A stretch of DNA of 64,000 nt. Origin: Candidatus Eutrophobius brisbanensis (GTDB lineage: Bacteria; Pseudomonadota; Gammaproteobacteria; Eutrophobiales; Eutrophobiaceae). The DNA is taken from the NCBI GenBank assembly GCA_038131795.1, contig JAYPQE010000003.1:525691-589690 (forward strand), given 5' to 3'. The first letter of the stretch is position 1, and each line of letters begins with the position of its first letter. Both the position numbers and the translations under genes were made by a program. Under the pieces are notes generated by a model. It was not told where the DNA came from and searched no databases. It saw nothing but the letters and a program-made list of their open reading frames with translations. Below are positions 3,826 through 22,149 of this stretch, piece after piece.

Positions 3826-3829
3826 CATC

Positions 3830-5083
3830 ATGGTTTTCAGTAAAATATGTGTAATAGGGTTGGGTTACATAGGCTTGCCAACTGCAGCCATTCTAGCTTC
3901 CAGAAAACTCCAAATAATTGGGGTGGATGTCGATCCGAAAGTCGTCAGCACAATTAATTCGGGTAAAATTCATATTATTGAGCCCGATCTTGATATTCTT
4001 GTGCAATCAACTGTAAACCAGGGTTTTCTTCGCGCTTATACAACACCAAAACAGGCAGATGCATATATCATAGCAGTACCAACACCATTTGGTGAAAATA
4101 GTTCCCCCAACCTGAGTTATATAGAATCTGCCAGTAAATCTATAGCTCCATTTCTGGAACCCGGAAACCTTGTGATACTTGAATCAACATCCCCAGTAGG
4201 AACAAGCGAAAAAATGGCAGATTGGCTTGCGGGAGAAAGACCAGACCTAACCTTTCCACAGTCTCATGGAAATAAAGCAGAGATCCGGATTGCCCATTGT
4301 CCTGAAAGAGTGCTGCCAGGATATATAATTAGAGAATTGGTGGAAAATGATCGCGTAATTGGCGGTATATCTGAGGCTTGTGCAATTAGTGCGGCTGAAT
4401 TATACAAAACATTTATCTCCGGTGTGTGCACATTGACAGATATAAGGACTGCAGAAATGTGTAAGCTTGTAGAAAATGCTTTTCGTGATATAAATATTGC
4501 CTATGCAAATGAGTTGTCAATTATATGTGATGATCTTGGGATAAACGTATGGGAACTAATAGAATTGGCAAACAGGCACCCACGAGTTGAAATACTGAAA
4601 CCGGGCCCTGGAGTAGGTGGACATTGTATTGCTGTAGACCCATGGTTTATTGTAAGTCAGTCGAATGGAAAGGCAAAACTGGTAGAAATGGCGCGAAATG
4701 TAAATGATGGTAAGCCTTCATGGGTAATAAACAAGGTTGATCAAGCAGTCCAGAAATTGAAATCTACTGATAAACATCATACCTCATTCAAACTAGCGTG
4801 CTATGGAATTAGTTTCAAAGCTGATATAGACGATATTAGAGAAAGTCCCGCCCTGAGAATTGCTCTGGAACTATCGGATAAGTATCCTGGGAATGTGTAT
4901 ATTACCGATCCCTGTGTTTCTGAACTTGATCGTGTATATCGTGATCGACTACAGATGGTTCCAATTGAGCAGGTCTCAGATGCTGATATTCATGTTCTGT
5001 TGGTTGACCATAACAGCTTCAGGCAAGGGAAACCGGACACTGGAATAATTGTTGATACACGTGGAATCTGGTCGCAAATTTAA
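3830..5083 (+). CDS. wecC: UDP-N-acetyl-D-mannosamine dehydrogenase
   Basis: NAD-binding 'KICVIGLGYIGLPTA', catalytic 'GVGGHCI'. UDP-glucose/GDP-mannose dehydrogenase family. Immediately follows wecB, as in wecB-wecC pairs. Confidence 0.9.
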   Translation: MVFSKICVIGLGYIGLPTAAILASRKLQIIGVDVDPKVVSTINSGKIHIIEPDLDILVQSTVNQGFLRAYTTPKQADAYIIAVPTPFGENSSPNLSYIESASKSIAPFLEPGNLVILESTSPVGTSEKMADWLAGERPDLTFPQSHGNKAEIRIAHCPERVLPGYIIRELVENDRVIGGISEACAISAAELYKTFISGVCTLTDIRTAEMCKLVENAFRDINIAYANELSIICDDLGINVWELIELANRHPRVEILKPGPGVGGHCIAVDPWFIVSQSNGKAKLVEMARNVNDGKPSWVINKVDQAVQKLKSTDKHHTSFKLACYGISFKADIDDIRESPALRIALELSDKYPGNVYITDPCVSELDRVYRDRLQMVPIEQVSDADIHVLLVDHNSFRQGKPDTGIIVDTRGIWSQI

Positions 5084-5406
5084 AGAATCTTATTCAGATG
5101 TTTAATTATAAAATTTTGTTATAAAAATAATAATTCTGAATAGAATGCTGTTTCATTTTTTTGATTTTCGGAATCGATGATATTTTAGGCTAATATTACT
5201 TAGGGAATTAGGCAGTAAGTGCAATACTATTTATTCTTTTCATTAACGAGGTGGTGTAGGATATTCAATCGAATACACCTGTATACAGAGTCTTTTCGAA
5301 AATCAATAATTCTAGCAGATGCATGAACTCATCAAATTATCCCTTTCTCTTAGATGAGTCTGTAATATTTATAATTGGTTACGCTATCTGGGTTCGATAA
5401 GGATTT

Positions 5407-7710
5407 ATGAAAATGGTTATGTCGCTTGTCAATAAAATCCAAAAGTTTGCCTATCGAAATCGCTATAACTATTTGAACCTTTGTTTAATTCATCTCATGG
5501 TAAGGCGGTGCCCCGATAGGCGTATTTACAAACTTGCATTCTGGAGTGCCAACAGGGTTGGGGATGTGGGGTTAATTAGAAAAGTTGTTGATGATTTCAA
5601 TACCTACTTCGATAGTAAAGATAATGTAAGAGACGGATTGTTTCTGGAGCAGATTAAGAAAACACCATATTATGGTAAAGCACTTTCCTTTGAAGGAGCA
5701 GTGAGTTTTACACATTATCTCAGGATACTTGTTGCAACACGCCTAGCAAACCAAATCGAAAATTGGGTTTGGCTAAAACGCAAAAAATATCTGATTATGG
5801 CGTACCTTTACATATCTGATGATTTGGATTTGTTAAAATTAGCATACTGGCAGAGTATTAAAGAAAAGGATATTGAGAATCAGTTTATTTTTAGGATTCT
5901 GGATAAAATATCAGTATATAGTGTAGCTAAAAATGATACGGCTATTAAATTTATTGAAAAAATTCATGACAGTATGTTGTACAGGTTGTATAGCTCAGAT
6001 CCAATGACGTTGATTGAAGAGTCAGGTTTATTTGACCATGAGTGGTATCTATCTGTTAATTCTGATGTGGCAAAAAGCGGTATAGATCCTGTACAACACT
6101 ACCTTAAACATGGTGCAATGGAAAACCGGGATCCAACACCCTGGTTCTCCACCTCTGATTACAGGCAACAATTCTCTGATGAAAGTCGTAAGGGAGTTAA
6201 TCCGTTGTTACATTATATCCTTGTCAAAGATCGTACTATCCTGACCAGTTTTTTATCAAATTCGCTATCTAGGTGTATGCAAATAGGGTTGGTAGGAAAG
6301 GCACAGGAGATAGCAAACTACCTGTTCACTGCAAGGGGTATAGCTACACGTATTAAATCTAGAGCAAAGTTTGTAATAAGCACGCTGCAAGAAGTGGATG
6401 AAGATTGGTTGCCGGAATTACCGGATACATACTATCCTAAACGAATTCTTAACCGACAGCCAGCAAATATTATCCATTTATTTAAGACTGTACTACCTTA
6501 CGAAAACTCTGGTGGTGCTATCCGTTGCAGAAATATTGTTGACTACCAAAAATATATTGGATTATGCCCCGTAGTTGTGACGCCACTTGGTTATCCAGGT
6601 GAAGCCACGGGTAGCATTAGGTCACGTAAGGAAGTAATCAACGGTATAGATTATTATTTCAAGAATTTTGTTTCACTGGATGATGCAAAAAAAATTCCTG
6701 TTTGTAAACGAGAAACATTCGATGTGTTGCTGGATTATCAGCTTTTGAAAAAGCTGCCTGTCGATTTAATTCAGGCCAGTTCAGGTTTCAGGGGGTATGA
6801 ACTCGCGCAAAGGGGGATTGTTTTGGCCAGGGCTTTGGGAGTTCCCTTTGTTTATGAAGTACGTTCCTTTCATGAACATACATGGCGTAGTCATACAGCT
6901 GATGTTCTGGAGGCGGAAATGACACAACTACGTATCCGTAAAGAAAACCGCTGTATGCAAATGGCTGATACAGTTGTGACTATTTGTGATACAATGAAGC
7001 AGAAGTTGATCGATAGAGGCATTAATGGCGATAAAATTTTTGTTATACCCAATGGTGTTAATTCTGAAAAATTTTCTCCGGAACTATCAACGGTTGATAT
7101 AAAAGAAAAATACGCGATCGGTAGTAAGACTGTCATAGGTTATATATCTAACCTGTCTAAGCGCGAAGGACACTCCGTGCTGCTGCAGGCATTAAACGTG
7201 CTTGTCAATCAAAAAGGTCTGGATGTTGCCGGGTTGATTGTAGGAGACGGTCCGACAAATGTCAGTCTGCAAAAACAAAGTAAGATGTTGGGTCTTGGGG
7301 ATAATGTGATATTTACTGGTACTGTTCCCCATGATGAAATTATCGATTATTATAATGCCATTGACATTTTTGTTGTGCCTAGAATAGAAGATTTTGCCAG
7401 TGATTTTGTAACGCCCATGAAACCTTATGAAGCTCTAGCTATGAAAAAACCGGTACTTGTAAGCGACAGGCCGGTATTACAGGAAATCATTCATGACGGT
7501 GAGACTGGTTTGGTATTTAAAACTAATGACGTTGATGACCTTGCAACGAAAATAGCGTATTTGATGGATAATACAGATGTGGCAGCCAGGCTAGCTGAAA
7601 ATGGTCGAAACTGGGTTGAAAAAAATAGTTCATGGGAATCAATTATTCACATATATAAGGATGTATATGCGCACGCGGCTGAATCTCTTCTAAAAAGACA
7701 GTATATTTAA
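5407..7710 (+). CDS. GT4 glycosyltransferase with a ~300-aa N-terminal extension carrying 'DHEWY..DPVQHYLKHG..NRDPTPWF' repeats
   Basis: C-terminal GT4 motifs 'EGHSVLLQALNVL..GLIVGDGP', 'KPYEALAMKKPVLVSD', 'ETGLVF'. The N-terminal extension shares the reiterated motif seen in the other large GTs of this locus. True start possibly downstream of 5407. Confidence 0.75.
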   Translation: MKMVMSLVNKIQKFAYRNRYNYLNLCLIHLMVRRCPDRRIYKLAFWSANRVGDVGLIRKVVDDFNTYFDSKDNVRDGLFLEQIKKTPYYGKALSFEGAVSFTHYLRILVATRLANQIENWVWLKRKKYLIMAYLYISDDLDLLKLAYWQSIKEKDIENQFIFRILDKISVYSVAKNDTAIKFIEKIHDSMLYRLYSSDPMTLIEESGLFDHEWYLSVNSDVAKSGIDPVQHYLKHGAMENRDPTPWFSTSDYRQQFSDESRKGVNPLLHYILVKDRTILTSFLSNSLSRCMQIGLVGKAQEIANYLFTARGIATRIKSRAKFVISTLQEVDEDWLPELPDTYYPKRILNRQPANIIHLFKTVLPYENSGGAIRCRNIVDYQKYIGLCPVVVTPLGYPGEATGSIRSRKEVINGIDYYFKNFVSLDDAKKIPVCKRETFDVLLDYQLLKKLPVDLIQASSGFRGYELAQRGIVLARALGVPFVYEVRSFHEHTWRSHTADVLEAEMTQLRIRKENRCMQMADTVVTICDTMKQKLIDRGINGDKIFVIPNGVNSEKFSPELSTVDIKEKYAIGSKTVIGYISNLSKREGHSVLLQALNVLVNQKGLDVAGLIVGDGPTNVSLQKQSKMLGLGDNVIFTGTVPHDEIIDYYNAIDIFVVPRIEDFASDFVTPMKPYEALAMKKPVLVSDRPVLQEIIHDGETGLVFKTNDVDDLATKIAYLMDNTDVAARLAENGRNWVEKNSSWESIIHIYKDVYAHAAESLLKRQYI

Positions 7711-7731
7711 TTTATTCATTATCATCCTGTT

Positions 7732-8649
7732 ATGCTATCAAAACCTGGTTTTATTGTTTCTATTGATGTCGAAGCTGTAACTTCAAGAGCAGATTCTGAT
7801 CATGTTAAAAAACTAATCTTTGGTGATTTTGATGCTAATGGAAGGCAGGGTATTATCGAAATGATGGACCTAGCTGATAATGCAGGTATCAAGCTAAGTA
7901 TGTTTCTCGATATGGTAGAAGTGGAAGTTCATGGAGATATCATTAACAAGGTCGCAGAATTGATCCATCAAAGGGGACATGATTTGCAATTGCACTTGCA
8001 TCCAAATTTGTTACGGGAGGGATATTGGCACAAGCTAGGGATGGAAAGACCTAATCTAAGGCGATGGGATTATAGTGAGGAATTAACACATATTTTATTG
8101 GAAGACTTTGGCCATAGAATGAAAGTTATTAAAGGGAATATGCCAGAATGTTTCCGGGCTGGTGCATTTCAAACCAGTATGAATTGGTTAAAATCGCAGA
8201 AGCGGCTTGGCATTCCCCTGTCATCCAATCATAATTATGCAAGTTTTCTTAATCAGGGAAGAGAACCACTAGCAGAACCGAATGCAGGAATATTTAAATG
8301 GGATAACGATATTATGGAGATACCAGTAACACAGTTATATGATGGTGAAAAGTGGAGGCCATTTACCTTTCCTGTCAGGAATGTGACCGATGAATCTGCA
8401 TTAAGAAAAATTCTGGAAAAATTATCAACAAATCAAAATCCTAATACGGTTATAGTAATGCTTATGCATTCATGGTCATTGCTGAAATATTCAGGAGTAG
8501 GTAAAAAATTTTCTGGTGTGGCAGAAAATAAACTCAAAAAATTCAAGATACTGATGTCCATTGTTAGGGATTACTTTGAACCCATGACATTTACGACACT
8601 TAAGGACATCAATAGAACGAGCCTTGAAGTAAGAAGCTTTCCATCATAG
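7732..8649 (+). CDS. Putative polysaccharide deacetylase (CE4/ArnD-like)
   Basis: N-terminal 'GFIVSIDVEAV' resembles the 'DVE' catalytic start of ArnD/CE4-like deacetylases. Located in the polysaccharide locus. Assignment by motif only. Confidence 0.45.
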   Translation: MLSKPGFIVSIDVEAVTSRADSDHVKKLIFGDFDANGRQGIIEMMDLADNAGIKLSMFLDMVEVEVHGDIINKVAELIHQRGHDLQLHLHPNLLREGYWHKLGMERPNLRRWDYSEELTHILLEDFGHRMKVIKGNMPECFRAGAFQTSMNWLKSQKRLGIPLSSNHNYASFLNQGREPLAEPNAGIFKWDNDIMEIPVTQLYDGEKWRPFTFPVRNVTDESALRKILEKLSTNQNPNTVIVMLMHSWSLLKYSGVGKKFSGVAENKLKKFKILMSIVRDYFEPMTFTTLKDINRTSLEVRSFPS

Positions 8650-8690
8650 CAATGTAATCAAGAGTGGGCATTTAATTAGGTTTAATTGCA

Positions 8691-9635
8691 ATGATAAGAT
8701 TTTATACTTTCAATGGAGGAGAGATTCCTTACGCACAGGCTTGCTTCGAAAATAAACAGGCCTATATATTTTTCACTGGTGTGATTCCCGTAAAACCAGG
8801 CTCTCATGCGACCATAACATCACAAAAAGCTGATATACCCCCCGTAAAATGTGAAATTAACAGGGTTGAAGACGCAACAAGTACTTTGTATGAAATCGGC
8901 TTTTCCCTGAGAAATAAAGGAAAATATCAAATATCCGTTACTACTGAAGATAATGTTGAATATGCAATGCCACTAACTGTTCTGCCGGAAATGACTAGTG
9001 TTCCTAATAATCCTTTCACAGAAAAAACAGATAAGTACTCAAAAGTAAGTAGTGTTTACATGGATTACCTTTTTTATTTTCTGCCTGATGAAGGAAGCCT
9101 TCTGGAGGCAGGCAGTTCAACCGGTCATTTTTCCATGGAAATGGCAAGAAGAGGATACGATGATATAAGTCTGATTGATGTGCGATCCGAGCCAATACAA
9201 CAGGCTAAAAAGGCTTTTTCTCAGGAAAATTTAAAGGGCAATTTTTTTGTTGGAAACTTTCTTGAGCATGACAATACTTATGATTATATCTGGAATACAG
9301 GGTTAATTTGTTCTGGCTTTCCCGATGATATAAAAGAGGACTTTATTGCCCACGCTGCCTCGCTCGCCCCTAAATTATTTGTAATTTGCGGTGATAACTT
9401 GAGACCGTATAGAGATATTCATGATCCTGATGAACGATGCAGAAGGGGCAATATAGCAAGGGGAGGCAATCCCAACAAGCCCGTAGGAGTAGGTGATGCA
9501 ATTACCTATCCTGGTATTAATGTCCCGCTGATTTTCTCCAAATACTATAGTCGCGTATTAACAGGTATGATATCACCTCGTGAAGGGTTCCCAGGTGGTG
9601 AGAGGTTCTGGACATATGGAGAAAGGATACTGTAA
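8691..9635 (+). CDS. Class I SAM-dependent methyltransferase with N-terminal domain of unknown function
   Basis: Motif I 'LLEAGSSTGHFSMEMARRG', then 'DDISLIDVRSEPIQQAKK'. Confidence 0.55.
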   Translation: MIRFYTFNGGEIPYAQACFENKQAYIFFTGVIPVKPGSHATITSQKADIPPVKCEINRVEDATSTLYEIGFSLRNKGKYQISVTTEDNVEYAMPLTVLPEMTSVPNNPFTEKTDKYSKVSSVYMDYLFYFLPDEGSLLEAGSSTGHFSMEMARRGYDDISLIDVRSEPIQQAKKAFSQENLKGNFFVGNFLEHDNTYDYIWNTGLICSGFPDDIKEDFIAHAASLAPKLFVICGDNLRPYRDIHDPDERCRRGNIARGGNPNKPVGVGDAITYPGINVPLIFSKYYSRVLTGMISPREGFPGGERFWTYGERIL

Positions 9636-9661
9636 ATGCTGATGATTTTTACGAGTAATAT

Positions 9662-10651
9662 ATGAAGATTGGACTGGTTGGATTTTTCGGTTGGGGCAAT
9701 TTTGGCGATGAATTATTTATCAAGGCACATCGGCAATACCTTGGGGATATTGCAACACTGGAACCTATAAATAATTTGATAAAAAAACCGTATTTTACGA
9801 AGGCGGTTAATGAGGTAGTTGAGAATTTTGATGCCTTCATCATAGGTGGAGGTGATCTCATCACACCATGGACAGTTTCAGAATTATACTGGAAAATAGA
9901 ATATTTGGAAAAACCAGTATTTGTTACAGGTATAGGTGTTCCTAAATGGGGTGGGTATAATAAGAATGCCGTCGAGAAATATCGAAAATTTTTTCAGTCA
10001 GACTCAATAAAAACATTTATTGGTAGAGACAAGGAAAGTGCAGACTGGATTAATAAACATGTGAAACCCAGTATATTGTGCAAGAATTTTGCTGATCTTA
10101 TTTGTGCGCTTGATTTGCCTGAACCACCCCAGAGTGGTGAAAAAATCCTCGGCGTATCACTTCGAAGTCGGCGAGGCGGGGAAGATGATTTTACTGAAGT
10201 TCGCCGATTATGTGATTCTGCAAAAAAAATGGGTTATACCATAAAGCATATTGTTCTCGCCAATCAAAGTACTGGCAAAAAAGATTATAACGTGATAAAA
10301 AAATTTGCCGCCAATGATGAAGAAATTTTGTATTCAGAATCCTTGGATGAGATGTGTATGGCAATCGGGCAATGTTCAGCTTTCGTCAGTATGAAATTTC
10401 ATGGGACAGTAGTTGCATCAATGTATGGCATACCATCAATAATACTTTCAGCAACTGATAAGAATCTTAATTTTTCAAGGCTTCTTGAAAGGCCCGATCT
10501 CGTATCATCCTTCAAGGATAAATATCTACATAAAAAACTTGCATATGAGCCTGTCAGGATCCATAGCCAGGTCAGGAATATGCTCCGGGATAATGCCAGG
10601 CGTGGTTATGATGTTATAAGGCATTCGATTCAGATGGAATTTAAGGTGTAA
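9662..10651 (+). CDS. Polysaccharide pyruvyl transferase (CsaB/WcaK family)
   Basis: 'MKIGLVGFFGWGNFGDELF', 'IIGGGDLI', and C-terminal 'SMKFHGTVVASMYGIPSI' are characteristic of PF04230 pyruvyl transferases. Confidence 0.7.
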   Translation: MKIGLVGFFGWGNFGDELFIKAHRQYLGDIATLEPINNLIKKPYFTKAVNEVVENFDAFIIGGGDLITPWTVSELYWKIEYLEKPVFVTGIGVPKWGGYNKNAVEKYRKFFQSDSIKTFIGRDKESADWINKHVKPSILCKNFADLICALDLPEPPQSGEKILGVSLRSRRGGEDDFTEVRRLCDSAKKMGYTIKHIVLANQSTGKKDYNVIKKFAANDEEILYSESLDEMCMAIGQCSAFVSMKFHGTVVASMYGIPSIILSATDKNLNFSRLLERPDLVSSFKDKYLHKKLAYEPVRIHSQVRNMLRDNARRGYDVIRHSIQMEFKV

Positions 10652-10658
10652 TTTTACA

Positions 10659-11372
10659 ATGGCATATATATCACACGAATACAGATTTCTTTTCTATTCA
10701 GCGCCTGCTACAGGTAGTACTGCCATTATCACTGCCTTTCAGGATAGGGAGATTGGTGAATATTATCCCATGGAGGATATTGTTAAAGATGGAATCAGGC
10801 TGGTGCCGAGAAAGCATAGTACCCCCAGGCAAATGGAAAAAGGCGGCTTGCTGGATGATATTATTAAGGCCTATTACAAGATAGTTGGTATTAGAAATCC
10901 TTTTTCTTTTCATCTTGCAAAATATTTGCGTAATAGGACACGCAGGCTAAAGCAAATTGATAATAAAAATTCATGGATAAATAAACTACCGGAAAAGGAC
11001 AAGCTGCGCTATGTGAATACCATCCGTAAGCAGGCCAACATGTCTTTTGAACAATACTTGCGTGATATGTTTGCAAAATACAAGTTGCCCAAGTCTGTGC
11101 AGGAAGAAATGCACACGGAAATTGATTTTTTTATACACCAGGAATCAATAAATGATGACTTGGCGTGTCTTTGTCAAAAACTAAAAATAGAACCTCGGGT
11201 TGAAGCAGGGTTGGTAAATATTACTAATGCGATTCCGGAGGATAAAACTTATCGAGACTACTATACCGATGAATTAATTGAACTGGTCTACAAGTGGAAT
11301 AAACCATCTTTCGAGAGATTTCCAGAGTATGACTTTGATGGATTTCATCCTGATAGGTGTGCCCCCGGATAG
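10659..11372 (+). CDS. Putative carbohydrate sulfotransferase (Sulfotransfer_2-like)
   Basis: 'YRFLFYSAPATGSTAI' resembles the 5'-PSB motif and 'IRNPFSFHLAKY' the 3'-PB 'RDPxxRxxSxY' motif. The C-terminus 'YRDYYTDELIELVYKWNKPSFERFPEYDFDGF' fits the family tail. Motif-level call only. Confidence 0.5.
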   Translation: MAYISHEYRFLFYSAPATGSTAIITAFQDREIGEYYPMEDIVKDGIRLVPRKHSTPRQMEKGGLLDDIIKAYYKIVGIRNPFSFHLAKYLRNRTRRLKQIDNKNSWINKLPEKDKLRYVNTIRKQANMSFEQYLRDMFAKYKLPKSVQEEMHTEIDFFIHQESINDDLACLCQKLKIEPRVEAGLVNITNAIPEDKTYRDYYTDELIELVYKWNKPSFERFPEYDFDGFHPDRCAPG

Positions 11373-11473
11373 GCTTTTTAACTTCAAAATTATATTCGCT
11401 TTTTATACAGGCATAAAGGGCTTCCCATTTACTGGACATTCTTGCAGCGGCACAGCAACTGGGTAAATATACT

Positions 11474-12058
11474 GTGTTGTGTAATAGTTCTTGGCAGGAA
11501 ATGGGTAATGATTATGATGAGATACTTGCACGACTGGATAAATTTATTGTTAGAGATATGGACAGTTATGAGGAATTACAGAAAAAACATGGGATAACCC
11601 CCGAACTCTGTCCTGATCTTACTGTCTGGCATCCAGCAAAACCTGAGGTTATCGGCCAAGGTGATGGAATTATCATGACTGATTTCTATTCCAGGGAGTT
11701 TGATTGTTTTACTCGACCCATGGGCGGAAGACTCTACAGTTTGCCGTTTCTGGAAATGCGTACTATGAGTTGGTATGAAATACTGAACAGGGTGGCACAG
11801 TTTGAATGTCTAATCACTAGTCGGTTTCATGGCATATTTGCAGCTTATAAGGCAAGAATCCCTTTTGTGGCGTATCCTGGCAATACCCATAAGGTAAAAG
11901 GATTTATTCGAATGACAGGCTTTCCTCTTCACTATACCTCGAATCCTCACAAATTAATCTCATTGGCGAGAAGGGCTATTCAGGATAAGTCTATATATAA
12001 TGAGCTTTATCATTGGTTAGATGAACAGAAATTACCCTGCATTTTACCAGACAAATAG
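11474..12058 (+). CDS. Pyruvyl-transferase-family C-terminal fragment. It lacks the N-terminal GNFGDE half and is possibly a decaying paralog.
   Basis: 'ECLITSRFHGIFAAYKARIPFVAYPGNTHKVKGF' parallels 'SAFVSMKFHGTVVASMYGIPSIILSATDKN' of 9662..10651. The frame is closed by TAA at 11414. There is no ATG; the ORF track used a GTG. The N-terminal ~100 aa of the family are absent. Confidence 0.4.
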   Translation: MLCNSSWQEMGNDYDEILARLDKFIVRDMDSYEELQKKHGITPELCPDLTVWHPAKPEVIGQGDGIIMTDFYSREFDCFTRPMGGRLYSLPFLEMRTMSWYEILNRVAQFECLITSRFHGIFAAYKARIPFVAYPGNTHKVKGFIRMTGFPLHYTSNPHKLISLARRAIQDKSIYNELYHWLDEQKLPCILPDK

Positions 12059-12072
12059 GGGAAGACCGTGAT

Positions 12073-13215
12073 ATGCGTGTATCAGATCTTAATACAGGAT
12101 TGAGTAGCTGGTTTGAATTAATGGCTGACGCTGTTCTATCTGGGGCAACGGAGATAGGATTACCCAAGTTATTGATGTACTACCCAGATGCCAAGTTTAA
12201 TCCATTTCAACAGTTATTATATTCACAGGCCTCTGAATATAATTTCGCCACCATTCCGGTAAATAGCTTTGATGAAGTTTCCCGGTTTTCCTGGGGGGGG
12301 GAGAGTGTACTGCATATCCATTGGCTGGCAGGTATATTGCGGGGCGCAAAGAATGATTTTGAACTTGAATCTCGTATAGAAAATTTTGAAAAAAAACTGG
12401 AAGGTTGTTGTGAGAAGGGGCACAGGCTTGTTTGGACCATGCATAATGTACTACCACATGATATTCAGAACGAGGAGGCAGAGATAAGGTTGAGGAAAAT
12501 AGTCTGCAGACTAGCAGATTTTATTCATATACTGGCCCGCGGATCTTCGAGTGCAGCCTCGGTTCATTATGAATTACCAGAACATAAGCTCAGGTACCTG
12601 CCTCATCCATCCTATCAAAACTGGTATCCTGACCTTGTGTCTGCAAGTAACGCACGTGCAGAGCTGGGTATATTACCGGGTGAAACCGTATATCTTTTCT
12701 TTGGTTCAATTCAGCGTTACAAAGGAGTCAGTGGACTAATACAAACATATAAGGAAATGACTGACGAATTTACGAGCAATAAGACAAAATTACTAATCGT
12801 TGGTAAGCCTGTTGATAAGGAATATTTAAACGAATTATATGAACTTGCACAGGGAAATCCGGCGATTGAAATATATCCAACGGCTGTATCAGATAGCTTG
12901 CTACAGTATTATTTCAAGGCGGCTGACGTACTAGTGGCACCCTACGAACACCTTCTGAATTCTGGTATAGCTCTACTGGCAACCGGATTTGGCGTCCCGA
13001 TTATTGCCCCGAATACGGGGGCGGTTGCCGAGATGTTTTCAAAAGATCCGTCATTACTTTATGATTATAAAAAGCCCCTTAAGGAATGCATGCTGGCAGC
13101 CATTGATCAAAATTATAAAAGGTCTATATTGGATAATATTAACAAGGAGGCCAAGTATGATAAGGTATCCTCCGGATTTTTTGACTTACTAGAAGAAATA
13201 ATTTCTGGTGAATAG
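12073..13215 (+). CDS. GT4-family glycosyltransferase. Contains G9 and A9 homopolymeric tracts.
   Basis: C-terminal 'LLIVGKPVD...', 'AADVLVAPYEHLLNSGIALLATGFGVPIIAPNTGAVAEMF' are GT4-like. A G9 run at 12293..12301 encodes 'WGGE'. An A9 run at 12389..12397 encodes 'EKKL'. Confidence 0.65.
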   Translation: MRVSDLNTGLSSWFELMADAVLSGATEIGLPKLLMYYPDAKFNPFQQLLYSQASEYNFATIPVNSFDEVSRFSWGGESVLHIHWLAGILRGAKNDFELESRIENFEKKLEGCCEKGHRLVWTMHNVLPHDIQNEEAEIRLRKIVCRLADFIHILARGSSSAASVHYELPEHKLRYLPHPSYQNWYPDLVSASNARAELGILPGETVYLFFGSIQRYKGVSGLIQTYKEMTDEFTSNKTKLLIVGKPVDKEYLNELYELAQGNPAIEIYPTAVSDSLLQYYFKAADVLVAPYEHLLNSGIALLATGFGVPIIAPNTGAVAEMFSKDPSLLYDYKKPLKECMLAAIDQNYKRSILDNINKEAKYDKVSSGFFDLLEEIISGE

Positions 13216-13243
13216 CTGACAGTTATAGTTTATTATATTTCAG

Positions 13244-13831
13244 TTACATAGAAATATGACGCCGTGCTTCCTTGAGCGCAAATTTCTTAACAGGATTATT
13301 ATAATAAGCTATTAATCGCTCTCCTTTTGGCGATACAATCAGAGGTTCTTGTACTACTACTGAGTAATCCGGGCTGCGGTCTGTCCATTTTTCAAGTTTT
13401 TCCTCATCAACCGGATCATGGATATGGTATTTGCAGTCGCCTTCCGGCCACTTATAGGGCACTGATATCAAAACACTATCTGCAATATTAAACAACTTAC
13501 GGGCAAATGCGCCGGCTTTAGGCACATGTTCTAGAACCTGAAGGCATATAGCAAGATCGTATTTTTGCTGAGGTTCAAAGTTTAAAAAGTCTTCTTTTAT
13601 TCCGGTAACATAATTTGAAGAATATGGTGTGCGTTTATCCAGGGCATGCTTGATCGGTATCCAGTCAAACCACTCAACACAGGAAGTATTACTGGAACCT
13701 ATGTCTATAATACTTCCGGCTTGATTAGCGACACCCCTGACGATCATCTCTACATAGCGGTAATAAATCAGATTTTTACGCCTGGTCCAGTAGTCATTGA
13801 CAGAATTTGGTTTTTCAGCGTTATTTTTCAT
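13244..13831 (-). CDS. Class I SAM-dependent methyltransferase
   Basis: 'GSIIDIGSSNTSCVEW', 'DLAICLQVLEHV' are methyltransferase motifs. Sits between GT genes in the polysaccharide locus. Confidence 0.6.
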   Translation of the reverse strand: MKNNAEKPNSVNDYWTRRKNLIYYRYVEMIVRGVANQAGSIIDIGSSNTSCVEWFDWIPIKHALDKRTPYSSNYVTGIKEDFLNFEPQQKYDLAICLQVLEHVPKAGAFARKLFNIADSVLISVPYKWPEGDCKYHIHDPVDEEKLEKWTDRSPDYSVVVQEPLIVSPKGERLIAYYNNPVKKFALKEARRHISM

Positions 13832-16199
13832 GCTTTATTTTAATTATGTTTAAAAATTTAGATTGAGTTATGTATTCATATGTGCTTGTAGTACAGTTTA
13901 CTGGTTGGCGATTTCTATAGTCAGTTGTTATGGTATTATCTTTGCAGATTACAAAGGTTCTTTCTGATTGTATATCAGGAATATCGTCTGGCACGAAGTC
14001 AAGTAGTTTTGGACTGGTGAGAATGACATATTTGGTATTCCCTATAAATGTCGGGGTAATGATTCTGGTCCCATCTGAGACACAAAAATCATAAATTACA
14101 CCTGATACAGGCTTTTGAACTGACCCGGATTCATATAGGGGCCAGTGGAAGATCGCTAAATTTGGATATTCTGTAGCGAGTTGCTGGAGAAGTGACATAT
14201 TACCCAACATTTCGCAACCCTTGGTACTGTAGTCTGAATAGATGACCAAATCAAATGTATTTATTTCAGTTTGTCTAGGAGACATTCCAACAGGTATAGG
14301 AGTTTTTGTTATTTCCCCCAGGGGGGATTCCTTGAAAATTTCCCGGTTATGCCAGTATGTGTAGGCGTCAAGGTATTGCCAGCGTAATCCATAATAGAGC
14401 GTTTTCACGTGTGTGGATCTGGTACGTGTCAGGGAGTCAGGCCGGGTAAGTGAAAAAGAGAGAGTCTTCTTGTTATTGACCCTGCCAATAGAATTATTGC
14501 CATAGTAGCGTAGAATACGGTGCCGAAATTCCGCATCCCCGGAAACCCTGACGTGAGGCCATTCACCAATGGCATTAAATACTTCACGGCGAATCATTAA
14601 TGAGGAAAAGTTGACGTCAGAGAGGTCTCCTCTTTCAATCCAGGGGCCAACTACATCAAGATTAAAGTTAAATCGAATCCAGTGAGACATGACGGCGACA
14701 TATTTTTTGCTTTTTAAAAGTTCATTTATTTGTACTTCAATTTTCTGTGGGTGTGACCAGTCATCACTGTCATGGACCATGATAAGATCACCATTGGCAT
14801 GTTTTAACCCGGTGTTTCTTGCCATGTATGCACCTTGATTATTGTCTTTTCTCACTAGCTTGATTCGATCATCAGAGCAGATAAATTCTGTTACAACGTC
14901 ACAGGTAGTATCCGTGCTGCAATCATCGACGACAATAATTTCTATATTTTTCCAGGTCTGATTTATAAGGCTTTCCAGTACTGTTTGAATCATTTCAGAA
15001 GCATTGTAAGCAGGGATGATTATACTGACCTTTTCTTTCTGGAGGCTGGTTTCCGGTTTTGAGATAGAGGTGATATTGGTGAAAGATATCGGTTGTGATG
15101 GATCCTTGAGTGTAATGGGTGACATGGATTCTGCTTCAAGATAACAGTTTAACCATGAAAGTTTTACGTCGTCACCGTTATCATTCAACCGTGACATTAT
15201 GGTAGAATTTAGAATATAAAAATCACGGTGCAAACCAAACCTTTCAATCCCTTTGGTAATGTAATGGCTAGCCTCATGATGGCGCCCGAGTTTGACCAGG
15301 CACATAGCAATAGCGACAAAGTGTTTTCGCTGTGATGGCCGTGCTTTCATACTGATTTGTGCATTTTTATATGCCCTAGTGTGTTCCCCATGAAAACCGT
15401 ACCAGCGCATGAGATACCATGCAGCACGTTCTCGTTCCAGACTCGACTTACACGCGTCTAATTTTAGGTTTTCAAGTTCTGGGATGGCATAATTTGAAAA
15501 ACCGCCCCACAAATCCAGTTCAAGTTTACTTGCAATTACACTACCTTTTATGTCACGACCTTCATGAATGCCGAATCGAAGATAGTGTAAGAAAGGGTGT
15601 ATGAGTGATTTTTGCACATCGGGATACTCATTTGTATAGAATCGCATGTCGAAATCAGGACCGGGATTGAGTTTTTCATGGCCGCCATACCGGAGGAAGT
15701 GGTCTGCTGCATCCATATCAGATTCCGCGACATCCGGATATGCTTTGTTATACCAGTCTGCGTCAAACAACTCGGAATTCAAAATCAGTTCAATATTTTC
15801 CTGATAAAGTTTTTTGTTTCCAGGACCACAACGTCCCTCTTTTTGGCCCCATTTAATATAGTGTACGAGTGGATTTATTTCTGCTTTTGCAACATCCGGG
15901 TTTTCCTGCATGTAGAGAACAGAATCAAAATCAGGTGAAGGGTTTCTACCGCCGATTGCCCCACTATATAAATAATCTCTGGCAGCTGAAGATCTGGAAT
16001 GAGGAACATCGGGATATTGTTGGCAATACCATTCTGAATCGAAAAGATCAGAATTTTCTAACAGCTTTATAGCTTGCCTATTTACTGCAATGAAGTGTAC
16101 CCATCTTAAAGATAACAAATCGCTATAGCCTAATAAATATTGCAGCTGATGATGCAATTTTGAACATAGTATCTGTAACCATCCTGATAATATCCACAC
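13821..16199 (-). CDS. Large multidomain glycosyltransferase (four N-terminal 'DWY/YPDV' repeats plus GT2 core plus C-terminal domain)
   Basis: GT2 core 'VSIIIPAYNASEMIQTVLESLINQTWKNIEIIVVDDCSTD', 'VHDSDDWSHPQKIE'. The N-terminus has four copies of the repeat, e.g. 'DSEWYCQQYPDV', 'ENPDVAKAEINPLVHYIKWGQKEGR', 'DADWYNKAYPDV', 'EYPDVQKSLIHPFLHYLRFGIHEGR'. The 5' 77 nt overlap the kpsD-like stop, so the start is uncertain. Confidence 0.75.
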   Translation of the reverse strand: MWILSGWLQILCSKLHHQLQYLLGYSDLLSLRWVHFIAVNRQAIKLLENSDLFDSEWYCQQYPDVPHSRSSAARDYLYSGAIGGRNPSPDFDSVLYMQENPDVAKAEINPLVHYIKWGQKEGRCGPGNKKLYQENIELILNSELFDADWYNKAYPDVAESDMDAADHFLRYGGHEKLNPGPDFDMRFYTNEYPDVQKSLIHPFLHYLRFGIHEGRDIKGSVIASKLELDLWGGFSNYAIPELENLKLDACKSSLERERAAWYLMRWYGFHGEHTRAYKNAQISMKARPSQRKHFVAIAMCLVKLGRHHEASHYITKGIERFGLHRDFYILNSTIMSRLNDNGDDVKLSWLNCYLEAESMSPITLKDPSQPISFTNITSISKPETSLQKEKVSIIIPAYNASEMIQTVLESLINQTWKNIEIIVVDDCSTDTTCDVVTEFICSDDRIKLVRKDNNQGAYMARNTGLKHANGDLIMVHDSDDWSHPQKIEVQINELLKSKKYVAVMSHWIRFNFNLDVVGPWIERGDLSDVNFSSLMIRREVFNAIGEWPHVRVSGDAEFRHRILRYYGNNSIGRVNNKKTLSFSLTRPDSLTRTRSTHVKTLYYGLRWQYLDAYTYWHNREIFKESPLGEITKTPIPVGMSPRQTEINTFDLVIYSDYSTKGCEMLGNMSLLQQLATEYPNLAIFHWPLYESGSVQKPVSGVIYDFCVSDGTRIITPTFIGNTKYVILTSPKLLDFVPDDIPDIQSERTFVICKDNTITTDYRNRQPVNCTTSTYEYITQSKFLNIIKIKHEK

Positions 16200-17772
16200 T
16201 CATGCTAGGCACTGCAGGAAGCGATATGATTTCATCCCCGGGTTGAATCGTAAAATTCCTGGCAGTACGTCCATACACTGGTATTACTTCGCCATTTCTT
16301 CGTAACACCATATGTTTATCATCATCAGCATGCGTTGTATATCCACCAACTCGCTCAATATAGTCTTTTAAGGTTGAACCTGGCTCATAAACTATGGCCT
16401 GGGGAACCATGACTTCGCCACTTACCTGGATAACATTGGTACGTTGTGGGACAAAAATGACATCATCGGGCTGTAATAATGGGTTTGATATGTTGCCGTT
16501 TTTTGCGACTACAAGGATTCCCCGGGGTTCAACATCACGCGCTCTATCGACAAAATCAGATATTAATTGCGCTTCTGCCAGCTGGATCTGTGCGCCTTCC
16601 TGGGTTACAGAGGTTCGGCCTAATATTGCCGTTTCAAGTCGATTTAAACTGTCCTGGATGGCCTGTTTTTGTCTAATTCGGATACTTTCACGTCGCATTG
16701 AGACGGAGTTAATATCACCTAAGTTTGGGTCAACCTGAATACGATTTAATACATCGAGTAAATGCGAGTTTCTGGGTACGGCAAATCGAGATTGGCCGTT
16801 ATGTGCACCTTCAATGTTGACCAAAATTGTGTCATGTGTCTGATCGATTTCAAAAATCACCTGATCGCCATCTGAAATGGTCATACTCTCCAATTCACTA
16901 ATGGGTAAATAATATGAAACCGGTTGATTCTCGCGAGTGCCAAGCAGGGTAGCATAGGTGGCATTAGCCAGTGGTCGGGTATATTGAATAAGCTCTGTAC
17001 CTTTTATTCCCCCCGCAGGAATTTCGAAACTAAAACTATTTCGGATTGCACCTTCAGCGATAACACTTGCGCCTCTACGACCCACAACGATAGTATCTCC
17101 ATCGGTCAATTGAGGTTTGGGCAATAGGCCATTTAGAAGAAAATCGTAAAGGTCAATAGTTTCTATAATTTCATTATCTCGCAAAATTCGTATTTCCCTA
17201 TAGCTACCTCTCTGCAAGTCAATTCCGCCAGCACGCTCAAGGAAATATAGAACAGAATCAGATGCAGTGCCGGCATAACTGCCAGGACGGTTGACAAAAC
17301 CGGTAACAAAGACGATGACGGGTGTCGTTCCCTGTAAATTGGTATATACATTGACATTCTGGGTAAATACTTGCTCGACAGCATTGCGTATACGAATATT
17401 AAGTTGTGCATTAGGAGTGTCTGCGACTTGTATAGGGCCAACTTCAGGAATAAAGATGTTTCCCTGGGTGTCTACCACAACGATTTCATTAATATTAACT
17501 GCCCCCCAAATTTGTAATGCAATCCGGTCTCCGGGTTGGATGATGTATTGAGGATTGATTCCATCTTCACGCTCAGCCACAAAAAAACTGCCCTGAAATA
17601 AATTGGCACCAAATGGCTTGATTGGCTGACTGGAAATTTGTTGGGGAAGTAGACTATTATCAACAGTATCATCAATTGGTTCAGGTGGGACTATTTGCTG
17701 GGCATAGCCACAGTGAGCGATTAACAGAAGAAGAATTAAAGAAATAATATTTATTTTATTTATATTGTGCAT
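16123..17772 (-). CDS. kpsD: Periplasmic/outer-membrane polysaccharide export protein (KpsD/Wza-like)
   Basis: Signal peptide 'IISLILLLLIAHCGYAQQ'. Poly_export motif 'YIIQPGDRIALQIWG'. Multiple SLBB-like 'GDxI' segments. ~550 aa like KpsD. Adjacent to kpsE/T/M. Confidence 0.8.
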   Translation of the reverse strand: MHNINKINIISLILLLLIAHCGYAQQIVPPEPIDDTVDNSLLPQQISSQPIKPFGANLFQGSFFVAEREDGINPQYIIQPGDRIALQIWGAVNINEIVVVDTQGNIFIPEVGPIQVADTPNAQLNIRIRNAVEQVFTQNVNVYTNLQGTTPVIVFVTGFVNRPGSYAGTASDSVLYFLERAGGIDLQRGSYREIRILRDNEIIETIDLYDFLLNGLLPKPQLTDGDTIVVGRRGASVIAEGAIRNSFSFEIPAGGIKGTELIQYTRPLANATYATLLGTRENQPVSYYLPISELESMTISDGDQVIFEIDQTHDTILVNIEGAHNGQSRFAVPRNSHLLDVLNRIQVDPNLGDINSVSMRRESIRIRQKQAIQDSLNRLETAILGRTSVTQEGAQIQLAEAQLISDFVDRARDVEPRGILVVAKNGNISNPLLQPDDVIFVPQRTNVIQVSGEVMVPQAIVYEPGSTLKDYIERVGGYTTHADDDKHMVLRRNGEVIPVYGRTARNFTIQPGDEIISLPAVPSMSVDIIRMVTDTMFKIASSAAIFIRL

Positions 17773-17819
17773 TGTTATCGTTTATCTTTAACGTTTTAAA
17801 TGTTTATGCAAACATCTTT

Positions 17820-18944
17820 TTATAATCTCATATGGTCTTTAATCGCTGCCCATACCAGCCCGCCAATTGCGTACATAATACATAATGATATAAACCAGGT
17901 GATGATTGATAGAAATCTCTCTGGTTCAACAGAATCATCTGGTAATTGAGGCGGCACAAAGGGGATCAGGTATCTTTGTTTTTTCTGGGCATCAATTCGT
18001 GCAAGTTCTAATGATGTCAATGTAGATGCATATTGTTTGGTAGCAAGTTCCTGTTCCAGAACAAGTGGCTGGTAATTGTCTATAAGGTGGGTGAAATCAG
18101 AGTTGTCTTCCTGGTTGTTGTTGAGGCGTTTTCTTTCTTCTTCAACCTGTTGTTGCAGCGCCATGACCTTACCCTTTAAAACTTTAACCTGGATGCTGTC
18201 ACTTTGCATATAGTTTTGGGCTTCAACAAGTTCTGCCCTGGATTCAGCAAGCAGGGCTTCAAGGCGGGTAATAATATTAAGTACAGCCGTTGTTTCCTGA
18301 TCTGGGTTAATTGATTTTGTTTCATTTCTGAATTGGGTAAGCGCTTCGCTCGCTTCACGAACCCTGGACTCAGCAATTTCTACTTCACTTCTGGCAAATT
18401 GTAACGAGTCCTCAATGATTCGGTTAGACATATTATTTACAAGATCTTCACTCAGGCTAATTATGTTCTCTGCAATTAACTTCGCAAAGTCTGGTGTAAA
18501 TGCCCTTACTTTTAATATGCTGACATGTGAAGAGCTGTCTGTAGATGCTTCAATCATTGTATTGAAGTAATCATGGAATTCTTCTAATGAATCATCAGGA
18601 TTAAATCTTGAGATGAAATCTATATTATTAGATGAATAATGATCTAAAATATTTATTCTATTATTTAGCTCGGAAATAATATCTCTTGATTGGATATATT
18701 CCATAACAATATTTGCGTCATCCCCTGAAAATTGAATTCCAGAGCTACCCATCATAAATGAGTCAACTAATCCTAGTGATGGAGATTCTGAACTAACTCT
18801 CAGTGAATATTTTGCTTCTGAAATATATATATCTGAAGCAATTAACAAATAATAAAGTGTCACTATCATTGTCGGAATTAGTACTAGAGAAACAAATAAT
18901 TTTGCCGGCATGGGATATCGGGAAATGTTAGTAATATTATTCAT
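17820..18944 (-). CDS. kpsE: Capsule polysaccharide export inner-membrane protein (PCP-3, KpsE-like)
   Basis: N-terminal TM 'LFVSLVLIPTMIVTLYYLLIASDIYISEAKYSLRV', long coiled-coil middle region, C-terminal TM. Classic KpsE architecture next to kpsT. Confidence 0.8.
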   Translation of the reverse strand: MNNITNISRYPMPAKLFVSLVLIPTMIVTLYYLLIASDIYISEAKYSLRVSSESPSLGLVDSFMMGSSGIQFSGDDANIVMEYIQSRDIISELNNRINILDHYSSNNIDFISRFNPDDSLEEFHDYFNTMIEASTDSSSHVSILKVRAFTPDFAKLIAENIISLSEDLVNNMSNRIIEDSLQFARSEVEIAESRVREASEALTQFRNETKSINPDQETTAVLNIITRLEALLAESRAELVEAQNYMQSDSIQVKVLKGKVMALQQQVEEERKRLNNNQEDNSDFTHLIDNYQPLVLEQELATKQYASTLTSLELARIDAQKKQRYLIPFVPPQLPDDSVEPERFLSIITWFISLCIMYAIGGLVWAAIKDHMRL

Positions 18945-18953
18945 AACTTATTA

Positions 18954-19622
18954 TCATTGCCTTATCTCAGCTGTGATATTTTCGCCATACACTTCCATGC
19001 CTTCTTCAACTGAATCATATAATGTCAACTTTCCATCTTTCAATACGGCTGCCATGTCGCAAAAGTCCATTATAGTCGATGCCTGGTGAGATACCATGAG
19101 TAAACTGGAGTGTTCTTTCCTGTCCATAAAGGCTTTTCGATATTTTTCTCTGAATCGCCGGTCACCAACCGATGTCGCCTCATCAACCAGGTAACATTCA
19201 AAATCTAGTGCCATGCTGATTGCAAAGCCTAACCTGGAGCGCATACCGGATGAGTAGGTTTTCACTTCCATATCAAAATAGCGGCCGAGCTCAGAGAATT
19301 CTTCAACGAAATTTTCTGTCTCATAGATATCGGCACCATAAATTCGGGCAATAAATCGTGTCCCTTCTCTACCGGTCATCTCTGGCTGGATCCCGCCAGT
19401 AAACCCTATAGGCCAGGAAACTACAACATCTTTGTATATTTCACCACTGTCTGGCGGTTCTACATTGCCAATGATTCTAAGCAAGGTAGATTTTCCAGCG
19501 CCATTTAATCCAAGGATACCCACATTCCGGTCACTGGGAAAACATACCGATACATCATCCAGTACAATATTACGACCATGTTGTACCGTATAGGATTTCG
19601 TTATATTTCTGAGCTCAATCAT
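18954..19622 (-). CDS. kpsT: Capsule polysaccharide ABC transporter ATP-binding protein
   Basis: Walker A 'GLNGAGKST', ABC signature 'YSSGMRSRLGFA', Walker B 'CYLVDEA'. ~220 aa like KpsT. Overlaps the kpsM stop by 4 nt. Confidence 0.9.
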   Translation of the reverse strand: MIELRNITKSYTVQHGRNIVLDDVSVCFPSDRNVGILGLNGAGKSTLLRIIGNVEPPDSGEIYKDVVVSWPIGFTGGIQPEMTGREGTRFIARIYGADIYETENFVEEFSELGRYFDMEVKTYSSGMRSRLGFAISMALDFECYLVDEATSVGDRRFREKYRKAFMDRKEHSSLLMVSHQASTIMDFCDMAAVLKDGKLTLYDSVEEGMEVYGENITAEIRQ

Positions 19623-20419
19623 ATTCTGTACGCGTATTTTCTTAATGCCCTTTGTAGTAGCAGACCTGTAAGTAATGTTCCGATAATAGTAAAAAATAAA
19701 TACTTATAATCAACATAAATAGTGTCATAAGAAACAAAGTATGAACTTCGTATAAATTCTATGATTTGTAGCAGGGGATTGAGAGTCGCATATGGTCTTG
19801 CTTCTTCAGGGATCATATCTACGGTAAAAAATACACCAGATAAAAAGAAAAGAGGCCTAAGGTATACTGTTTGAACTAATATTTGAAGAGATGGAAATAA
19901 AGGGATAAGTGCGCCGAGCCCAACTCCGATTCCAAAGGCATAAATACTTATCATAAGGAGCCCCACAAATATTGCTAGAGGACTTTGCACTACAACATTT
20001 TCATAACCAGTATAGAAGATGAGTAGAACGAGTGAAGGGAATACAATTAATGTTGTAGAAAATTCTAATAGAGTCCTGGCAGTAAAGAAATCCATTATTT
20101 GAACTTGGGGGAAATATAATAATTGTAAGTTTCGACGCACGCCTGTCATTAGTTGTGTGACAATATCGCGAAATAGCATAAAAGGAATAAATCCACTAAT
20201 TAAAAATTGGGACAGGGGCATGCCCGGAATATCCCTCATGCGGATATATTTAAAGACAAGACTTAATACAGTGATTACAAGTATGGGCTCTAAAAATGCC
20301 CAAAGATACCCAATTTGTAAACGTCCATAACGTGTTTTGGTTTCTCTTAATATTAGAGCAAAATTTACCCGGCAGATGGTGCGTAAGGCATCAGATAATT
20401 TAGGCTGGATATACTCCAC
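19619..20419 (-). CDS. kpsM: Capsule polysaccharide ABC-2 permease
   Basis: Six predicted TM helices, ABC-2 family size (266 aa). Translationally coupled to kpsT. Confidence 0.85.
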   Translation of the reverse strand: MEYIQPKLSDALRTICRVNFALILRETKTRYGRLQIGYLWAFLEPILVITVLSLVFKYIRMRDIPGMPLSQFLISGFIPFMLFRDIVTQLMTGVRRNLQLLYFPQVQIMDFFTARTLLEFSTTLIVFPSLVLLIFYTGYENVVVQSPLAIFVGLLMISIYAFGIGVGLGALIPLFPSLQILVQTVYLRPLFFLSGVFFTVDMIPEEARPYATLNPLLQIIEFIRSSYFVSYDTIYVDYKYLFFTIIGTLLTGLLLQRALRKYAYRI

Positions 20420-20636
20420 AGTAATTCTTACCGTTTTTAGTTATATTTTTAAATAGTTAATTATTTTCAATAATATAACTTATTGTTATTTATTGAGTTT
20501 TATGGATTTGGAGTATCGCAGAAAATATTCGGAAAAGCCAGAAAGTACAAGATAATAAATAACTATCTTATTGTTTTATATATAAAAAATGGCTTTTTAC
20601 TTAGTCAGGAATACTACGGAGAAGAGCAAGATCCGT

Positions 20637-21083
20637 TCACTTGGATAAAGAATCAATCATAATCTGCAAATCATTGGCCTTCTTTTTACTGCCACCCAGG
20701 AATCCTGGTGCATCAAGATAATATTGTTTTAAGTCCTTCAGGGCATCAAGGTTTGTCTCATCTAGTTCAACGGCTTTTTCAAAGGCCTTCCGAGTTTTTT
20801 TTGCCATTGACATTGCTGTTAGCCAGGCAGCGTTTTCAGCAATTCGCCCATAGCTTTTGCCCAGCCAGTGATAATAAGTTGAATTCTCTGAATCTTCATT
20901 AACAAGGTATTCAAAGACTTCTCTTGCCTGTTGGAATTTTTCTGCCTCATAAAACTTGATGCCATGGTCGAGCGAGATGTTCTTATCGTTCTGTGCAAAT
21001 AATGAATTTGAGATACAGCATAATAATATGCTGCATAAACATAGTTTATAATGGGAAATATTTGATATTGACTGTAATACCAT
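20637..21083 (-). CDS. Secreted TPR-like protein (hypothetical)
   Basis: Signal peptide 'LCLCSILLCCISNSLFAQ'. TPR-like 'FYEAEKFQQAREVFEYLV...YYHWLGKSYG'. Confidence 0.4.
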   Translation of the reverse strand: MVLQSISNISHYKLCLCSILLCCISNSLFAQNDKNISLDHGIKFYEAEKFQQAREVFEYLVNEDSENSTYYHWLGKSYGRIAENAAWLTAMSMAKKTRKAFEKAVELDETNLDALKDLKQYYLDAPGFLGGSKKKANDLQIMIDSLSK

Positions 21084-21170
21084 TCGTTTAAAGGACGCTG
21101 CCTATAATATTCAGAGATTTTATAATCCAAATATATAGACAAATAATGCTTTCTTGAGTTTCAGGATTAA

Positions 21171-21854: not shown

Positions 21855-22020
21855 TGGATAGGCCTTTTATATATTTGAATGATCGCAGTTTAAAGAAGAT
21901 TATATATAAGGTAAAGGAATGACCTGGATATAGGATCAGGCATGATCAGGGAGGATTTATTGGTCGACTTCCAATTTTCTCATAAGGTGTTATCTATGTG
22001 CCCTGTATATCTTCTAAAAA

Positions 22021-22097: not shown

Positions 22098-22149
22098 GAC
22101 AAAAACAAATTCATAAAGTATCCGCCCTGTGGGCGGTATTTTTATTACT

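Follow-up and report, generated by a model that had tools for sequence, protein, structure and literature searches.

A nine-G tract in a capsule-locus glycosyltransferase gene of Candidatus Eutrophobius brisbanensis: a candidate site of slipped-strand variation

Organization of the capsule locus

The window, by which we mean the whole 64,000-nucleotide stretch of DNA analyzed here, comes from a contig of Candidatus Eutrophobius brisbanensis, an uncultured gammaproteobacterium. A capsule locus occupies about the first 21 kb, and one of its glycosyltransferase genes contains a run of nine G residues (G9). The features of the locus, in order along the window, are as follows:

2499 to beyond position 1, − strand: gene for a bifunctional GT2+GT4 protein of at least 833 aa, running off the window; it carries a run of ten A (A10) at 1922..1931
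2602..12058, + strand: first part of the upstream operon, from profile matches: wecB, UDP-ManNAc dehydrogenase, a 767-aa GT4, a 305-aa unknown, a methyltransferase
2602..12058, + strand: rest of the upstream operon, also from profile matches: a pyruvyl transferase, a 237-aa unknown, a truncated pyruvyl-transferase-like ORF
12073..13215, + strand: the G9 gene, an intact GT4 (GT-B fold) glycosyltransferase gene of 380 aa, from Pfam, alignment and a structure model
12293..12301, + strand: the G9 tract
12354..12379, + strand: premature stops after slippage (G10 stop at ~12354, G8 stop at ~12377)
12389..12396, + strand: a run of eight A (A8) in E-K-K codons, seen in the sequence, downstream of both frameshift stops
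13244..20419, − strand: convergent capsule genes, from family-level matches: a methyltransferase-like gene, a 792-aa GT2, then KpsD-, KpsE-, KpsT- and KpsM-like export genes

The + strand genes form an operon with intergenic gaps of 4–323 nt. The G9 gene is its terminal member, with a 28-nt gap to the convergent genes of the − strand. Since the gene is the last of its operon and only convergent genes lie beyond it, an OFF state is expected to be non-polar. Promoter and terminator scans gave counts equal to those of shuffled sequences.

What does the locus make? The first two genes of the operon match wecB (8.6e-152) and UDP-ManNAc dehydrogenase (2.3e-193), and the product is probably a polysaccharide that contains ManNAc or ManNAcA. 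The export genes include matches to the KpsM model (6.2e-39) and to the KpsE/BexC/CtrB family (2.2e-82), together with a polysaccharide-export (OPX) protein and a TagH/Wzt/VexC-like ATPase, all of them below equivalog cut-offs. Judged by these profiles, and at the family level only, the set has the composition of an ABC exporter (KpsM/KpsT with a KpsE PCP-3 and a KpsD OPX protein). The beta-Kdo linker transferases KpsC and KpsS had no match among the scanned ORFs of the capsule locus, and for this reason the locus is called KpsMTED-type here rather than a bona fide group 2 capsule locus. KpsC and KpsS may be encoded elsewhere in the genome, or the polysaccharide may have a different lipid anchor. 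Three ORFs (7732..8649, 10659..11372 and 20637..21083) matched no Pfam family.

Some minor observations belong to the same region. The 194-aa ORF at 11474..12058 (+), directly upstream of the G9 gene, corresponds to positions 116–276 only of the profile for polysaccharide pyruvyl transferases, which has 280 positions. Its N-terminal third is absent and is not supplied by any upstream frame, and a full-length paralogue lies at 9662..10651; the ORF is possibly the remnant of a 5'-truncated gene. A motif of roughly 50 aa, F-D-x-x-W-Y-x-x-x-Y-P-D-V ... H-[YF]-x-x-x-G-x-x-E-G-R, recurs several times in each of the two large glycosyltransferases of the − strand (13821..16199 and 2499..<1); no Pfam family was reported for it. 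The G+C content of the capsule locus (1..21854) is 0.37–0.42, as against 0.44–0.475 in the housekeeping block at 22000..34000, and the locus adjoins a tRNA-Pro(cgg) gene at 22022..22098.

The glycosyltransferase and its tract

The G9 gene encodes a glycosyltransferase of family GT4. Its protein matches PF00534 (Glycos_transf_1; E 9.9e-12, 45.2 bits against a gathering cut-off of 26.4) and PF13692 (Glyco_trans_1_4; E 7.4e-11, 42.9 bits against a cut-off of 27). Over its whole length it can be aligned with 17 homologues (32–43% identity), with which it has 39 invariant residues in common; the alignment reaches the C-terminus and has no gap across the G9 site. An AlphaFold model built on the homologue alignment (pLDDT 87, pTM 0.86) has the two-domain GT-B fold, its two Rossmann-like domains in this predicted structure resembling those of solved GT4 enzymes. 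The best PDB matches by Foldseek are MshA, GlgM, HepE, BshA and WaaG, all GT4 enzymes, and a sequence comparison with the PDB likewise pointed to GT4 enzymes. MshA, BshA and WaaG (PDB 3c4q, 3mbo and 8b5s) share with the G9-gene protein the fold (Foldseek E 1e-15 to 1e-11, TM 0.6–0.7) and the Glycos_transf_1 C-domain, but their identity to it is only 12–16%, and the invariant N-domain motifs HxHW and WxxHNxLPH are specific to the G9-gene family. A specific enzyme assignment was dropped, since no NCBIfam equivalog matched the protein at cut-off. Some of the homologues are labelled "beta-1,4-mannosyltransferase" by JGI, as an annotation only.

The nine G residues lie at 12293..12301 of the + strand, as inspection of the sequence confirmed, in the context ...TTTTCC T GGGGGGGGG AGAGTG.... 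The first-pass annotation had placed them at this position in a GT4 coding sequence and had read them in frame as "WGGE"; the exact coordinates, the Pfam matches and the codons all agree with it. The tract is found at gene offset 220 of ORF 12073..13215, 19% into the coding sequence, where codons 74–77 (TGG GGG GGG GAG) specify W74-G75-G76-E77. In the model these residues are part of the loop immediately before the N-domain strand 78–82. The homologues have the consensus W-[A/R]-[G/D/N]-R-S at this site, and W74 and G76 are conserved in the family, so that part of the run is already supplied by them. The departures from the consensus, A/R75 to G and the strongly conserved R77 to E (GAG), each lengthen the G run.

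The same annotation spoke of "a genome this AT-rich," which is overstated: the G+C content is 41.3% over the window and 37–42% in 2-kb bins over the capsule locus (about 1–21 kb), and the base composition is AT-rich to a moderate degree but not extreme. G9 is the sole G/C run of at least eight in the 64-kb window, and another 180 kb from other loci added none (~244 kb inspected in total). Within the ~21-kb capsule locus, neither a second G/C tract of at least eight nor any other short repeat occurs; in the whole window, the only other short repeat is (AT)5.

Consequences of slippage

A slip of one base truncates the enzyme, as had been claimed. With G8 the product is 101 aa long and ends at a stop at ~12377, and with G10 it is 94 aa long and ends at ~12354, compared with 380 aa for the intact protein (stop coordinates were worked out from the product lengths). 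G6 and G12 keep the reading frame. Both short products are without the invariant H124-N125-P128-H129 motif and the entire C-terminal nucleotide-sugar domain, and are presumably null. The shifted frames contain no long alternative ORF that could yield a fusion or an alternative product. Since G9 is in frame and both G8 and G10 would truncate the protein, the gene is currently ON.

A second tract in the same gene had been reported as nine A at 12389..12397. It is a run of eight at 12389..12396, base 12397 being C, and thus falls short of the poly-A/T cut-off of at least 10 that is applied to phase-variable tracts (PMC6321876). Such runs are common: the window has 24 A8/T8 matches against 13.3 expected, eight of the 24 within one 207-bp tandem repeat. 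Since both premature stops lie upstream of it, the A8 run is unable to restore the frame. It was rejected as a partner tract or a means of frame rescue on all three counts.

For G and C, the phasome cut-off is a run of at least seven (PMC6321876). G9 exceeds this length, and it lies inside a coding sequence in which a change of ±1 leads to a premature stop. In C. jejuni NCTC11168, all tracts of at least eight have been observed to vary (PMC6321876).

These properties suggest that G9 may be a working, reversible slipped-strand ON/OFF switch of a capsule gene, a tentative reading that we give nearly an even chance of being right. On this reading the tract, located within the first fifth of an intact GT4 gene that is presently ON and closes a capsule biosynthetic operon, would be prone to slippage. 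Strand slippage during replication would convert G9 to G8 or G10, and the shifted frame would stop at 101 or 94 aa, with the loss of most of the N-domain and all of the C-domain and, in all likelihood, a null product. The cells concerned would lose their capsule or make an altered one, until a second slip brought G9 back. The outcome would be reversible mutational ON/OFF control of one sugar-transfer step in capsule synthesis. For an environmental bacterium, pressure from phages or grazers would be the most plausible setting. A useful rate of slippage, reversibility in this host and a change in the capsule are the inferred parts of this scheme.

When a slipped-strand switch was first proposed for this gene, the argument was partly anatomical and partly statistical. 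The anatomy does match such a switch: the length of the tract, its 5' location in a gene for a surface-polysaccharide glycosyltransferase, the stops in both shifted frames and the position of the gene at the end of the operon. The statistics and the A tract, on the other hand, do not carry the weight that had been placed on them. Against a switch, the tract is a singleton in its locus, it is unremarkable under shuffle nulls and the codons that compose it are ordinary ones.

Is the tract beyond chance?

The run had been described as highly non-random. However, when the window was shuffled 100 times with its dinucleotides preserved, 26 of the shuffles had at least one G9 or C9 (mean 0.44), and a G/C run of at least nine occurred in 8.8% of 2000 shuffles in which synonymous codons were permuted within each of the 48 window ORFs (51 kb of coding sequence; mean 0.09). 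Scaled up from the codon-shuffle mean, and thus by extrapolation, about four such tracts would be expected by chance in a 2.5-Mb genome. Shorter runs are not depleted in the window either, with 12 G/C runs of at least six against 8.3 expected and 2 of at least seven against 1.9 expected from the codon shuffle. Nor is there avoidance of the codons involved: GGG makes up 16% of the glycine codons, and 3 of the 82 Gly-Gly pairs are GGG-GGG, compared with about 2.1 expected. G9 is not clearly in excess of chance.

The nulls themselves are probably too generous. Poly-G/C is the most indel-prone and the most avoided mononucleotide repeat in the coding regions of 42 species, and long G/C runs are usually fewer in real coding sequences than shuffles predict (PMC3315296). 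Because of this avoidance, and because no run of at least eight was found in the 180 kb of other loci, the shuffles probably overstate what chance would produce.

The A10 run near the start of the window, read as T10 at 1922..1931 on the + strand, bears on the same question. It lies in frame in codons 190–193 (Q-K-K-N) of the GT2+GT4 gene, upstream of the GT2 domain (residues 226–362), and a change to A9 or A11 gives products of 193 or 200 aa, both of which stop before that domain. The run reaches the poly-A/T cut-off of at least 10. However, it was reproduced in about 50% of the codon shuffles, where its frequency reflects the lysine AAA bias, and in 56 of the 100 dinucleotide shuffles. The protein that bears it and the 792-aa GT2 encoded at 13821..16199 are paralogues (31% identity). 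G9 and A10 are the longest runs of their kind, and both fall in capsule glycosyltransferase genes; this joint outcome arose in 2.1% of codon shuffles, a post hoc figure that is driven by G9 and covers 64 kb of ~2.5 Mb. From the joint figure and the recurrence of A10 alone in about half of the shuffles, we infer that a G/C run of at least nine would fall in one of the four glycosyltransferase genes in about 4% of codon shuffles.

The main alternative to a switch follows from these numbers. The tract may be incidental and have no adaptive role, arising simply because the peptide W-G-G-E is encoded by unexceptional codons (TGG, GGG twice and GAG); it would then be effectively stable, slipping as rarely as any other homopolymer does where repair is proficient. 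We regard this as a serious contender, if somewhat short of an even chance. It accords with the recurrence of G9/C9 in the shuffles and the four or so tracts extrapolated for the genome, with GGG-GGG pairs at expectation, with the contribution of two family-conserved residues to the run, with the presence of a single such tract in the locus, and with its absence from all homologues of the enzyme. What tells against it is that coding sequences are usually poorer in long G/C runs than their shuffles (PMC3315296), with none of at least eight in the 180 kb of other loci, and that the site is a textbook one, within the first fifth of a gene for a capsule glycosyltransferase.

An E. coli example also speaks against stability. 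In the group 3 capsule strain K96, a reversible A7-to-A6 frameshift in kpsC leads to recurrent capsule loss (PMC13410964). Like the present case, this concerns an ABC-transporter capsule in a gammaproteobacterium; it differs in that the tract is poly-A, the gene, kpsC, is an initiation gene, and switching is rare (PMC13410964), while no KpsC/KpsS homologue was seen in the window of our host. K96 serves as a model for an incidental tract with real consequences, and an incidental origin is therefore not the same as a lack of effect. Since an ordinary A7 in K96 kpsC gives reversible capsule loss at a low rate, a switch and an incidental hot-spot are better seen as the ends of a continuum.

Homologues and relatives

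The protein database searched (5.8 billion protein clusters) contains one copy of the G9-gene protein, recorded from the source contig alone, and the next match is 43% identical. Protein scans for a close copy gave a best identity of 30% in a collection of genome contigs and of 35% among metagenome proteins. A metagenome search with the flanks of the tract and a variable gap (N5–15) returned 0 matches, and the E. coli genomes contained no match to the gene. Neither an intact nor a fragmented close copy turned up in any of these collections, and look-ups with the exact protein led to no indexed contig.

The tract is absent from all 17 aligned homologues. The closest of them (P0002, 43% identity) reads TGG CGT GGA CGT at the site, and its 20-kb locus contains no G/C run of at least seven. 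That locus has the layout seen in the host, with wecB, the dehydrogenase and a large GT4 preceding the homologue of the G9 gene, and the enzyme is therefore viewed as a conserved component of a module for polysaccharides of the ManNAc(A) type. The absence of the tract from the homologues is no argument against a switch, since the poly-G of pgtA in N. gonorrhoeae is likewise found in only some strains (PMC2193922).

As for the host itself, its IleS has an identity of 85% to the IleS of MAG GCA_040265195.1, and of no more than 73% to proteins that carry the label "MAG: Gammaproteobacteria bacterium." Some matches bear the name "Kaarinaea lacus," which belongs to a cyanobacterium; we take this for a wrong label or a contaminant from co-culture. 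The ispB...ileS...ispH synteny is common to the host and these IleS relatives. Three contigs of a relative at 73% IleS identity (P0041) stop at or next to the FKBP/ispB boundary, which is where the capsule locus of the host starts. Together with the lower G+C content and the tRNA-Pro(cgg) junction, the ends of these contigs suggest that the capsule region may be strain-variable and possibly horizontally acquired.

Miscounting and recoding

Could the tract length simply be wrong? If the consensus or the assembly was miscounted, the true length would be G8 or G10 and the gene a pseudogene, or a mixed population would be hidden behind a single sequence. Homopolymers are error-prone in long-read assemblies, and the source contig, at 2,524,515 bases, is consistent with an assembly of this kind. 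Homopolymer length errors are a known artefact (PMC8808543). However, with G9 the ORF is intact and gapless at the site in the alignment with the 17 homologues, and the modelled protein has a complete GT-B fold. A wrong length would most likely have broken the frame, which makes a miscount very unlikely.

Transcriptional slippage is possible on long homopolymers, but recoding by slippage of RNA polymerase or the ribosome, which would give two products from one gene, has nothing specific in its favour and can be set aside almost entirely: the zero frame encodes the full conserved enzyme, the shifted frames stop after 17–25 codons and encode nothing recognizable, and the A8 run lies past both stops.

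Comparison with known systems

The first-pass annotation had likened the tract to the classical switches of Neisseria, Haemophilus and Campylobacter. The likeness holds for the anatomy of the site; the host, on the other hand, is an uncultured gammaproteobacterium, and its ~21-kb locus has a single tract. One parallel is siaD of the N. meningitidis capsule, in which a homopolymer frameshift turns the capsule off and reversion turns it on (1996 work, as cited in PMC2686086). In both cases the capsule locus depends on an ABC transporter, and a homopolymer interrupts no flank but the coding sequence itself of a gene for a capsule-polymer transferase, as far as siaD is described in PMC2686086. By that account, variation, reversibility and phenotype are all documented for siaD, whereas the G9 gene is known from sequence alone. 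The enzyme family and the organism are also different, the present tract being a poly-G in a GT4 enzyme.

Another parallel is offered by the capsule and lipooligosaccharide genes of C. jejuni, which share with the G9 gene an in-frame poly-G of 8–9 in a surface-glycan transferase and an early stop upon a −1 slip. For example, wlaN is ON at G8 with a product of 303 aa and OFF at G7 with 148 aa (PMC8437040, PMC6321876). However, C. jejuni has 29 tracts per genome, with switching up to about 1e-2 (PMC8437040, PMC6321876), and the capsule cluster of NCTC11168 alone contains 6 (PMC8437040), compared with the single tract in the ~21-kb capsule locus of our host. In N. gonorrhoeae, pgtA, the gene for the pilin galactosyltransferase, resembles the G9 gene in carrying poly-G in a glycosyltransferase gene in some lineages only (PMC2193922). 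The difference is that phase variation of pgtA has been shown by experiment and correlates with disease type (PMC2193922), while G9 is known from one sequence.

Possible significance

To our knowledge, repeat-driven phase variation of capsules has so far been documented mainly in host-adapted pathogens. A broader proposal is that G9, perhaps together with A10, forms a contingency locus by which a gammaproteobacterium that is free-living or was sampled from the environment would switch a ManNAcA-type capsule ON and OFF, or change its structure, under phage pressure. We consider this rather unlikely. If it were true, repeat-driven capsule phase variation would be extended to an environmental lineage.

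If the tract does vary, capsule-positive and capsule-altered subpopulations could arise by cheap, reversible mutation, and both the surface properties of the cells and their susceptibility to phages would be affected. Phase variation driven by a homopolymer would then have an example beyond the usual host-adapted pathogens. In practical terms, the tract is a site at which assemblies, annotation and strain comparisons of the lineage may differ by one base. The mechanism is already textbook material, and the tract would represent at most a new candidate instance of it in an uncultured gammaproteobacterium. An incidental tract would be an ordinary finding, a slightly risky run of codons in an otherwise normal capsule gene.

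Other features of the window

A probable integrated island lies at 35098..46421, away from the capsule locus:

35098..35173: tRNA-Thr, the start of the island
35329..36549: tyrosine integrase, followed by a nuclease-helicase gene
44175..45260: second integrase
45507..46421: unknown ORF with the only A9 of the window (46003..46011)

The nuclease-helicase gene (39192..42785, +) encodes a protein of 1197 aa in which an Mrr-like nuclease and ResIII/DEAD helicase domains are followed at the C-terminal end by eight HA (helicase-associated) domains. The DNA for these HA domains is a 207-bp tandem repeat at 41165..42768 (7.7 copies, 93% matches), with an A8 run in each copy. In relatives whose IleS is 73% identical, the glutaredoxin gene is followed by DUF4124 and pilus genes in place of the island.
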